Virus record (IMG/VR): IMGVR_UViG_3300037418_002116
Source: a virus
Lineage: Duplodnaviria > Caudoviricetes
DNA length: 64,000 nt
Direction: 5' to 3' (one strand)
The notes under the pieces are model-generated. The model had not been told where the DNA came from and made no database searches. It was given only the letters and a program-made list of their open reading frames with translations. Shown here in pieces: positions 6,027 through 28,199 of the stretch. The translations under genes and the position numbers were made by a program. The first letter of the stretch is position 1. The number at the start of each line of letters is the position of its first letter.

Positions 6027-6158
6027 TGGTGATAGAGGCGGGAATCGAACACCGCTTGGGAGCTTTCCTAGACTTTATCCGGAATATTGCGCTAGTACTT
6101 ACTTGATCCGCCGTCACCCCATTATCTTAGGGCCGCTGTACCAATCAGCTACTCTATC
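6027..6158 (-). ncRNA. 132-nt tRNA-like RNA with about 61-nt expanded variable region
   Basis: Acceptor GATAGAG/CTCTATC + A + CCA; D-arm GCTG-ATTGGTA-CAGC; T-arm GCGG(T)G-TTCGATT-CCCGC; imperfect arm GCCCT-AAGATAA-TGGGG; long insertion before the T-arm. Confidence 0.8.
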
Positions 6159-6170
6159 ATTTTAGAAAAT

Positions 6171-6247
6171 TGGCTCTAGCCGCAGGGATCGAACCTGCCA
6201 TGTACAAGTTAACAGCTTGTCCCGTCCACCCTGTTCGGCTGGCTAGA
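6171..6247 (-). tRNA. tRNA-Asn(GTT)
   Basis: Acceptor TCTAGCC/GGCTAGA, anticodon arm ACAAG-CTGTTAA-CTTGT, encoded CCA. Confidence 0.93.
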
Positions 6248-6307
6248 AAAACAGGAAGAAGGCGTTAGCGAACCCGGTTCGGCAACTTCCTGTGGGTAAT
6301 AATACTG

Positions 6308-6336
6308 AATGTATGTTATTTAGACACGAATGTCAA
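6308..6336 (-). promoter_or_regulatory. sigma70-type promoter with embedded late-like CTAAATA
   Basis: TTGACA (6331-6336), 17-nt spacer, TACATT (6308-6313); CTAAATA at 6317-6323. Confidence 0.7.
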
Positions 6337-6352
6337 GAAAGGTTTATAAAAA

Positions 6353-6466
6353 AGAGGCGAATATTTCAGCATCGGACGCTATGCCTAGCTTATTTCATCG
6401 CCTCTAGGTGAAAGTGAGACAACATCGTGTCAGCATCGGCACTTTGCCTAGCTATCCCGTCGTCTC
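6353..6466 (-). ncRNA. Tandem duplicated structured RNA motif ending in a terminator-like U-tract
   Basis: Two hairpins (6353-6405, 6416-6466) share identical cores AGCTAGGCA and CCGATGCTGA but have different, each complementary, outer stems; U-run follows the distal copy. Confidence 0.65.
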
Positions 6467-6571
6467 TTTCTGGCCATCGCCACGAAGCTTCTTTCAAGCA
6501 CTCCCGTTTTATTCCGGGGAAGAGATTACATCCTAGATATAGGTGTTCTTTTCAGAACTTCAAGGGCCTTC

Positions 6572-6838
6572 TTACAATTCCCGAACCTGAATCGATTTGC
6601 TAGGCTGGAAATGCACACGACTGAACTTTTTGTTCGGGTCAAAATCGTCATAATATGGCGAAACATGCATGTTCTTTGGAACATATGGACAATAGAACAT
6701 ACCGGCGTCATGCAACTGCTTACCCTTGTAAGGCATAAGCAGAGGATTGGACGGCTCATTCGGCCTTACAAACGCCTTGGCGGCACTCGGAAAGGCTAAA
6801 ATGGACGCCAGACCAGCAAGAAAGTCACGCCGTTTCAT
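6572..6838 (-). CDS. Tat-signal protein carrying a major-capsid (gp23) C-terminal fragment
   Basis: MKRRDFLAG...AAKA signal; YKGKQLHDAGMFYCPYVP matches gp23 YKG...DAG.(F/Y)Y.PYV. Confidence 0.8.
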   Translation of the reverse strand: MKRRDFLAGLASILAFPSAAKAFVRPNEPSNPLLMPYKGKQLHDAGMFYCPYVPKNMHVSPYYDDFDPNKKFSRVHFQPSKSIQVREL

Positions 6839-7244
6839 GTTCGATCACCTTGGTTCGATCCTTAACCAGCTTATAGCTCTTGTCCGGCATTATCACAGAC
6901 ACCTTATCGGCAATGTAAGTTGCCGGATAATATTTGGTTTCCGTGATTCTGACGGCCATATCTCGCATATCGACATACATATGAAGGTTTTTACCTTCGA
7001 GTCGTGATTGTTCCCAATGCCGTTCCAAAACTGACTTCATAGCCCTTGCACGGGCAGTGATATCAGGATTCGGATACGACGCATTGTAAGTTTCCCACAA
7101 CAAATCAGAATAGCGGACGTTGTAGTCCTCTTTCTCGACCGATTTCAGGATTTCCGCAAGAGTTGTATCGGCCATCGCCGGAAATGACAGAGTAGCCGCT
7201 ACAGCCGTGGCAACGGCACCTACAAGGAATTCACGCCGTTTCAT
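6825..7244 (-). CDS. Tat-signal protein of unknown function
   Basis: True start at ATG 7244 (AAAGGA RBS); MKRREFLVG...PAMA signal. Confidence 0.8.
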   Translation of the reverse strand: MKRREFLVGAVATAVAATLSFPAMADTTLAEILKSVEKEDYNVRYSDLLWETYNASYPNPDITARARAMKSVLERHWEQSRLEGKNLHMYVDMRDMAVRITETKYYPATYIADKVSVIMPDKSYKLVKDRTKVIEHETA

Positions 7245-7644
7245 TATAGAATCCTTTCGTCGGATTGTCGGGATCATATCCATAATCAATCATGCGTTGC
7301 CGAACATTTTCGGATGCTTTCGGATGCTTTCGGGAAATCAAATGCATTTCCCGATGATCCTTACCATAACAGATTGAGAGAGCTTTGATTCGCTCTATGT
7401 CCGAATCTGTCATCTTGACCACTCGGGCAAACGATTTGGTTTCTGTAGGGAATTTGGCTTCTTTGAAATCCAATCGCCAGACCAAATAATCGTTTTTATC
7501 CGGAAGAATGCGGGCGGTAGATGTCCCATTGGTCCAGTTCACGAACAAGACCCAATGTTTCTTCTCTTCGGCCTTAGCCAAAGCAGGAAGCATTGCAGTA
7601 GCGGCGGCAATTCCTACACCAGCAAGGAATTCACGCCTCTGCAT
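7231..7644 (-). CDS. Tat-signal protein of unknown function
   Basis: True start at ATG 7644 (TAATG overlap); MQRREFLAG...LAKA signal. Confidence 0.8.
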   Translation of the reverse strand: MQRREFLAGVGIAAATAMLPALAKAEEKKHWVLFVNWTNGTSTARILPDKNDYLVWRLDFKEAKFPTETKSFARVVKMTDSDIERIKALSICYGKDHREMHLISRKHPKASENVRQRMIDYGYDPDNPTKGFYNETA

Positions 7645-8237
7645 TAGGTGTTCACCTTCAATGGAACATACGGATAATTTGCGTTGGCAAATCTCGTCTT
7701 GAATCCAAATGTTGCCGGACCAGCTATGGTCGGACCAGAGATTTTCATTGGCAAAACGGGTATATAGAATGCTTGGTGCATCCATTCCCGTTCATCCTGA
7801 AATTGGGATAACTCGGCGGCAATTTCCGTCGTATAGATGTGCACCAATTCTGTTTCGGCATCCAAACCACAAACAAGCATCAAATCATTTCGAATTTCGC
7901 ATGTGTATTGTGAGCGCAGCGCTCGGGACATGGCGACTATCGAATATTTGTCCCTCCCATAGTCACGCAATTCCGTGACGTTGAACATCGGCTGATGTTT
8001 GAACAAATAAGGATGTTTATCGACCAGATTGGCGTTAACATCCGTCACCATCTTGGAAAATTGCTTGTCGAAGCCTTCCAAATAGTGTGGCAATTGCTTT
8101 TCCAGAAGGTAGCTTTTCCAGTTCTGCAAATCGAACTTCGGCTTCGACGGCATAAGCGCCGGAAGCGCCAGTGCTGGCTTGGCGATGGCAACAGCGGTCG
8201 CCGCTACCGAACCAACAAGAAAATCACGCCTTTTCAT
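7644..8237 (-). CDS. Tat-signal protein with condensed major-capsid (gp23)-derived domain
   Basis: MKRRDFLVG...PALA signal (ATG 8237, GGAG RBS); NWKSYLLEKQLP, HQPM, AMSRALRSQYTCEIRNDLMLVCGLDAETELVHIYTTEIAAEL and FGFKTRF correspond to successive gp23 motifs. Confidence 0.8.
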   Translation of the reverse strand: MKRRDFLVGSVAATAVAIAKPALALPALMPSKPKFDLQNWKSYLLEKQLPHYLEGFDKQFSKMVTDVNANLVDKHPYLFKHQPMFNVTELRDYGRDKYSIVAMSRALRSQYTCEIRNDLMLVCGLDAETELVHIYTTEIAAELSQFQDEREWMHQAFYIPVLPMKISGPTIAGPATFGFKTRFANANYPYVPLKVNT

Positions 8238-8415
8238 TATCATGCTCCGGTCTGTTCCATTCGATAGTCATGGTATCGAGTGTCGTTTGAATGTGCTTGA
8301 TCTTACCGATTCGGAGGCGGCAAACACCATCAACATTGACCCATAATTTTCCGAATTGGTCAAGAGTCACTTCAACCACTTCGGCGTCCAACATATCTAC
8401 CATTTTATCGGTCAC
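8224..8415 (-). CDS. Hypothetical protein
   Basis: 63-aa ORF; GTGA overlap upstream; its stop lies inside the Tat module of the next gene. Confidence 0.7.
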   Translation of the reverse strand: MTDKMVDMLDAEVVEVTLDQFGKLWVNVDGVCRLRIGKIKHIQTTLDTMTIEWNRPEHDNEKA

Positions 8416-14280: not shown

Positions 14281-14484
14281 GCGGTATTTTCAAACCATCG
14301 TGGTTAGAAGCCCAAAACAGACCGGACATTGGGCGGAAAGCCAGTCACCTTCCCTTTGATCGGCATGGTAACGTGCCTCTTTCCGCTTAAATTTGATGAC
14401 GGAAGAACAAGATCGGCACGTTACCCGATATTCCTTTTCGGCGGGCAATTCGCCTCTTTTTTCGATTTCTATGACTTTATTCCT

Positions 14485-16284: not shown

Positions 16285-16312
16285 TTGACACTCCCAAAAT
16301 TTTGATTATATT
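16285..16312 (+). promoter_or_regulatory. Early sigma70-type promoter
   Basis: TTGACA, 16-nt spacer, TATATT. Confidence 0.75.
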
Positions 16313-28171: not shown

Positions 28172-28199
28172 AATATAATGAAAATTTAGAGAGTGTCAA
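28172..28199 (-). promoter_or_regulatory. Early sigma70-type promoter
   Basis: TTGACA, 16-nt spacer, TATATT. Confidence 0.78.

Follow-up and report, generated by a model that had tools for sequence, protein, structure and literature searches.

The 64-kb stretch of DNA analysed here (the window) comes from a T4-like phage with a genome of 261 kb, whose DNA polymerase is ~39% identical to those of cyanomyoviruses. It carries genes for a ligase, a ribonucleotide reductase and several tRNAs, and nearly all of its genes are on the minus strand. Four open reading frames (ORFs) at 8243-6572 on the minus strand each start with a twin-arginine (Tat) signal-like peptide, and two of the four match Pfam Gp23. 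These two genes are cut-down copies of the major capsid protein, and the array as a whole is an early operon. Its last gene, one of the Pfam Gp23 matches (E 5e-08), is followed by a 3' trailer containing two adjacent hairpins, A and B, that lie within a 769-nt gene-free stretch. The gap between the stop codon and the next gene is 769 nt both in the window and in at least three independent Logan assemblies, so the hairpin region is not an assembly artefact. From the stop codon at 6574-6572, the order on the minus strand is two weak hairpins, hairpin A, hairpin B, a tract of six U (U6), a promoter, a leader hairpin, a tRNA-Asn gene and a tRNA-like gene. The main features are:

6572..6838, minus strand: last gene of the Tat-signal array, 88 amino acids, starting MKRRDFLAGL..., with a gp23-like C-terminal peptide (from the ORF list and translation)
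6487..6518, minus strand: two weak hairpins with 4-bp stems, CCCG/CGGG at 6518-6503 and GCUU/AAGC at 6499-6487
6416..6466, minus strand: hairpin A, the proximal copy, 51 nt (fold compared with shuffles)
6354..6404, minus strand: hairpin B, the distal copy, 51 nt (fold compared with shuffles)
6348..6353, minus strand: U6 tract directly 3' of hairpin B, continuing as UUUUUUAUAAA (read from the sequence)
6308..6336, minus strand: sigma-70-type promoter TTGACA-17-TACATT, near-consensus, with 10 of 12 consensus matches
6171..6247, minus strand: tRNA-Asn (GTT), first product of the downstream unit (ARAGORN)
6028-6158, minus strand: tRNA-like gene of about 131 nt, directly after tRNA-Asn

Hairpins A and B are repeated at a spacing of 64 nt. 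In hairpin A, the basal stem is 9 bp long and includes G-U pairs, the core strands occupy 6453-6445 and 6439-6430, and a 3-nt loop caps the apical GGCA/UGCC stem; the tail that follows, ACUUUCACC, has no U-tract. Hairpin B has a G+C-rich basal stem of 7-8 bp (AGAGGCGA/UCGCCUCU, counting 6405/6353) and core strands at 6390-6382 and 6375-6366. Folding of both copies returned the architecture described in the first-pass annotation of this DNA, in which inner AGC/GCU and GG/CC stems flank a UA/GAU internal loop. Compared with shuffles, hairpin A is stable at -19 to -20.5 kcal/mol (z about -3, or -3.1) and hairpin B at -16.3 to -18.4 kcal/mol (z about -2.4, or -2.3). RNA of the minus strand, the transcribed one, folds better than that of the plus strand (-20.5 versus -13.5 kcal/mol for A, -18.4 versus -16.3 for B) because hairpin A uses G-U pairs. 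The two small hairpins previously noted further upstream are present, but their stems are only 4 bp long and the region that holds them (6470-6572) differs from shuffles by a z of only -1.6. The alternative pairing suggested between a UCUCUU stretch and the proximal copy would amount to only 6 bp, and we found no support for it.

The inner strands AGCTAGGCA and CCGATGCTGA are exact in both hairpins. The window contains exactly two occurrences of the pattern AGCTAGGCA-N3-12-CCGATGCTGA, both on the minus strand (6430-6453 and 6366-6390), against none in 100 shuffles. Alignment of A with B over their full length gave 37 identical columns out of 53; as the alignment includes the basal 5' arm, the whole hairpin was duplicated. 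The first-pass annotation was thus right in placing a true duplication on the transcribed strand, 3' of the four-gene array, in the trailer of the operon. A repeat at the level of coding was ruled out, as a period of 64 nt is not divisible by 3 and therefore runs out of frame and yields no repeated peptide.

Identity between the copies is unevenly distributed. All 19 core positions are identical, compared with 18 of the remaining 34, and the apical loop and 3' arm diverge. When the identity pattern was permuted, a pair of runs of ≥10 and ≥9 positions arose with P = 0.032; the binomial figure of 6e-6 for the core applies to a partition picked after seeing the data. Given that 37 of 53 columns are identical overall, these figures suggest a clustering that is modest and not compelling. 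The outer stems had been reported to differ and yet to stay paired. Pairing is indeed retained, and all 12 modelled pairs (100%) are kept in both copies despite about 30% divergence, but the stems are homologous and not independent sequences: their 5' arms are identical at 9 of 13 positions and, of the six basal pairs that can be aligned, four do not differ, one changed on one side (G-U to G-C) and one is compensatory (A-U to G-C). With n = 2 sequences and a single compensatory pair, the A/B comparison is a covariation test without statistical power.

The exact core, the divergence of apical loop and 3' arm, the compensatory pair and the better fold of the transcribed strand could all belong to a functional structured RNA, composed of two protein-binding hairpins with a loop-E-like UA/GAU loop that would act as a 3'-UTR-derived sRNA, decoy or sponge while hairpin B also terminates transcription. 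The internal loop itself invites this idea: CCGAU and UAGG face each other across it in a way that resembles one half of E. coli 5S rRNA loop E, and loop E of 5S rRNA is the binding site of ribosomal protein L25/Ctc. The likeness extends to one half of loop E only. Its far side is here a Watson-Crick GCU/AGC stem, that is, a regular helix with one extra U, and the 5S covariance model does not recognize the hairpins at E up to 10. We hold this reading to be unlikely, the more so as the core clustering reaches just P 0.03 in two sequences that have no covariation power, and as the database searches and relatives described below offer the element no kin.

Rfam was searched both at the gathering threshold and with E up to 10, and no relevant match was obtained, 5S rRNA included; the best scores, 14.1 bits for snoU83B and 12.7 bits for P9, are both far under threshold. 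Exact-core scans of about a terabase of public DNA matched one locus in IMG/VR, 28 in JGI metagenomes and 18 in GTDB genomes, the last scanned as one genome each of 185,579 species. These matches were rejected as homologues. They are mostly coding, none of them has two copies, and all are single and devoid of flanking stems, hence due to chance. Searches of GenBank phages by blastn with 1.5 kb and with the 231-nt trailer returned only a match to tRNA-Asn and chance matches of 22-31 nt. A covariance model (R1) built from copies A and B recovered only A and B in the window, 17 related loci and four related phage genomes, and a fuzzy regular expression and a mismatch-tolerant pattern run on the same sequences found just the two copies; in one relative (G001) the mismatch-tolerant pattern gave 3 matches versus 9 for a reversed control. 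Within the window, neither blastn-short nor the covariance model found a further copy of the hairpin. Two checks put forward in the first-pass annotation therefore returned nothing for a structured RNA: there is no Rfam family match, and there is no homologue in IMG/VR, JGI metagenomes, GTDB genomes or GenBank phages in which covariation could be sought. The lack of further copies and of database homologues fits a local, recent structural element and not an RNA family.

In order to compare the locus with its counterparts, five syntenic relatives were recovered via the flanking ATP-grasp protein, a DUF7205-like protein and the last Tat ORF: IMG/VR 3300037466_001997 (L002/L049), an ENA soil contig (L063, with fragments L064-L067), a JGI/Logan contig (L069/L070), and the loci L071 and L072. 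The order ATP-grasp, Tat-type ORFs, promoter is found in L002, L063, L069 and L072. A tRNA-Asn gene and the same promoter are present in all five relatives (L002, L063, L069, L071 and L072), and the promoter is the sole part of the intergenic region that the relatives conserve. Hairpins A and B are absent from all five, and likewise from four related whole phage genomes. The element is therefore, from its absence in relatives and databases, private to one phage lineage. The first-pass annotation had envisaged a conserved aptamer, sponge or sRNA linked to the Tat array, and had made this depend on conservation of the cores in relatives. The cores are not conserved, even though Tat-signal ORFs, the promoter and tRNA-Asn are all present in the five relatives, and the proposal in that form is not supported.

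What relatives have in place of the hairpins differs. In L002, L063, L069 and L072 the upstream ORF reaches or enters the promoter and no terminator is found there; as this holds for four of the five relatives, termination is dispensable at this junction. In L071 the last upstream gene is followed by a plain and strong terminator (-22.7 kcal/mol, z -6.1) ahead of the shared promoter, and the base and tail of this terminator have the form AGAGG...CCUCUUUUUAUA, as in hairpin B.

Hairpin B itself has the anatomy of an intrinsic (Rho-independent) terminator. Its stable G+C-rich stem is followed by a U-run on the transcribed strand, as had been noted for the distal copy; the U6 tract occupies 6353-6348 and the last pair of the stem abuts it. 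The position is equally suitable, with the stop codon at 6574-6572, the hairpins at 6466-6354 and the next promoter at 6336-6308. This promoter begins 11 nt past the U6 tract, and hairpin B ends 17 nt upstream of the -35 hexamer. Unlike typical intrinsic and tandem terminators, the hairpins are long (51 nt), contain a 7x7 internal loop and share a conserved apical domain, and the upstream copy ends in ACUUUCACC and not in a U-run. Hairpin B is accordingly not listed by a consensus terminator scan, which allows loops of 3-8 nt, whereas a looser scan for U-runs and hairpins places it among the few non-coding terminator candidates of the minus strand. The simplest conclusion from the U-tract, and the most likely one, is that the distal copy is the intrinsic terminator of the operon, set directly against the conserved promoter.

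Taken together, we lean towards a lineage-specific tandem duplication of an intrinsic-terminator hairpin that parts the Tat-signal array from the tRNA promoter. According to this model, a hairpin module of ~64 nt at the 3' end of the array has been duplicated in tandem in this phage lineage, and both copies would be transcribed as the trailer of the array. Hairpin B, with its G+C-rich basal stem and U6, would terminate transcription between the early operon and the tRNA-Asn promoter. Hairpin A, having no U-tract, may be a decaying duplicate, or may serve as an additional hairpin at the 3' end, causing polymerase to pause or stopping 3' exonucleases. If so, the element matters little by itself: it marks the border between the early Tat-signal operon and the conserved tRNA promoter, and the hairpin pair is a small example of the duplication of regulatory hairpins at variable junctions of T4-like genomes.

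One observation does not sit easily with a bare terminator, as the core identity (19/19 versus 18/34, P 0.032) hints at a sequence-specific constraint. Together with the half-loop-E likeness it makes a sequence-specific partner possible. The pair might then constitute lineage-specific binding sites for a phage or host protein, either on a released sRNA that acts as decoy or sponge or as a control of the stability of the Tat-array message. We regard this as quite unlikely; only if the core does bind a protein would the pair be of greater importance, as an RNA element newly born from a duplication.

The variability of the junction raises a different question, namely whether either copy is under selection. 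The junction differs in each relative examined, in the C-terminus of the last Tat ORF, in the leaders and in the types of tRNA-Asn. The whole junction around 6572-8243 is a rearrangement hot spot. Conservation of the last Tat-signal ORF stops at FYCPYVP, and its C-terminus is different in every homologue (P0001-P0005). In L063 the last Tat-signal ORF terminates within the promoter spacer, and in L071 tRNA-Asn and the next conserved gene are separated by a gene for a GIY-YIG (SegE-like) homing endonuclease. In such a hypervariable T4-like junction, where one relative carries a homing endonuclease gene, tandem duplication by slippage or recombination could have left a neutral relic that is private to one lineage and in which neither copy is selected. 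A relic of this kind would hardly be expected to retain 100% of 12 modelled pairs at about 30% divergence, to have a perfect U6 exactly at the foot of hairpin B, or to keep the same region length in at least three independent assemblies. A neutral origin is an unlikely explanation, if not a negligible one.

Finally, the repeats might act as DNA and not as RNA: as direct-repeat sites for a regulator or recombinase, as ends of a miniature mobile element (IS200/IS605-type or REP-like), or as a CRISPR-repeat-like unit. They are direct repeats at a regular spacing of 64 bp (about six helical turns) upstream of the tRNA promoter, their 24-25-nt repeat with a 39-nt interval recalls repeat-spacer geometry, and in relatives this locus is a mobile-DNA hot spot. 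Against this, the 8-9-bp flanking complementarity and the G-U pairs suit an RNA hairpin and not a duplex site, and relatives keep the promoter without the repeats. The repeats also differ in their middle 5-6 nt, unlike those of CRISPR arrays. Dispersed copies, as expected of a mobile palindromic element (REP or an IS200-IS605-type PATE), were found neither by the exact-core scans nor by the covariance model: the window, the relatives, the 185,579 species genomes, the metagenomes and IMG/VR contain no other copy, and this tells against a mobile family. We consider a role as DNA sites highly improbable.

Three further origins were tried and rejected. MAFFT juxtaposed the hairpins with the 5' half of tRNA-Asn, but local alignment of the two was not significant compared with shuffles. 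Leader RNAs of the relatives gave only matches of 10-19 nt (blastn E 0.24-0.93), and descent from them is unproven; the stretch 6503-6486 does resemble the first leader hairpin of L071 at 17 of 19 aligned positions (0 of 300 shuffles), with a blastn E of 0.93 for a 10-nt exact core. An independent sRNA gene was dismissed as well, as downstream of the stop codon there is only one candidate promoter, TTGAAG-N16-TATATC (6563-6536), a weak one that the promoter scan does not list.

The 15-mer ATTCGCCTCTTTTTT (6348-6362), which comprises the 3' foot of hairpin B and the U-tract, has one inverted recurrence in the window, at 14448-14462 on the plus strand. At this second site (blastn-short E 0.014), the 15-mer is the foot of a small terminator-like hairpin on the plus strand, within the intergenic gap 14330-14484.

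[quoted passage not shown] 2010, PMC2839356; Comeau et al. 2014, PMC4122927). PeSLs form a repeated family within a genome and, in RB49 and phi1, the stem-loop usually lies between or over the -35 and -10 boxes (PMC2839356, PMC4122927). The window resembles a PeSL in that a stem-loop or terminator and a sigma-70-like early promoter with an A/T-rich upstream stretch share one short intergenic region, at the edge of a gene block that varies among related T4-like phages; at the DNA level, the U6 tract corresponds to this A/T-rich stretch, immediately 5' of the -35 hexamer. Unlike in PeSLs, the hairpin lies upstream of the -35 box, and no other copy of it exists in the window. Judged by the 64-kb window, it is not a member of the repeated PeSL family. 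Clearer PeSL candidates in the window include the promoters at 28199, 14280 and 789, where an inverted repeat brackets the -10 box and has a sequence different from that of the hairpins. Early promoters at 28199, 14280 and 789 on the minus strand and at 16285 and 55460 on the plus strand share a word composed of TTGAC[A/T], ~13-15 nt, ATTATATT and [A/G]ATGA.TGTA, and at least three of them have an inverted repeat around the -10 box, e.g. CTCTCTA...TAGAGAG.

The promoter at 6336-6308 probably drives tRNA-Asn and the tRNA-like gene. Its spacer contains CTAAATA, and the orthologues in L071 and L072 have the full TATAAATA, which is the late-promoter word of the T4 type; early and late promoters may therefore overlap in the tRNA unit. 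Between the promoter and the start of tRNA-Asn, a leader hairpin at 6247-6294 on the minus strand (-14.8 kcal/mol, z -2.0) is followed by U5; given its terminator-like shape within the tRNA leader, it may serve in attenuation or as a signal for processing.

Two unrelated kinds of tRNA-Asn(GTT) occur at this locus, one of 75-77 nt in the window, L071 and L072 and one of 86-92 nt in L002, L063 and L069. In the window gene the D arm is odd, and the Rfam tRNA model does not detect this gene; the longer form has a long extra arm (L002 5358-5449, L063 2858-2943, L069 3476-3567). It would seem that one tRNA-Asn gene took the place of another at this locus and that the promoter was retained. The tRNA-like gene at 6028-6158 has a 7-bp acceptor stem, a discriminator A followed by CCA, a D arm and a TTCGATT T-loop, together with an abnormal "anticodon" arm with about 50 additional bases. 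ARAGORN calls it tRNA-Phe(aaa) with a 48-nt intron at a relaxed score only, and it has no Rfam match. It is conserved in three relatives (L063 2950-3092, L069 3583-3714, L002 5464-5592).

Between the shared promoter and tRNA-Asn, relatives also have leader RNAs that are conserved and apparently structured and that are missing from the window. Leader modules of L002, the only relative scanned for them, gave no Rfam match. The first module (L002 5176-5287, L071 3097-3212) is closed by a GUGACU/AGUCAC stem, and its first hairpin shows compensatory changes (GUCUC/GAGAC versus GCUUC/GAAGC). The second (L002 5284-5357, L063 2783-2857, L069 3401-3475) has a stem that covaries in the three phages, with GAUCGC, GACCGC and GAUGGC.
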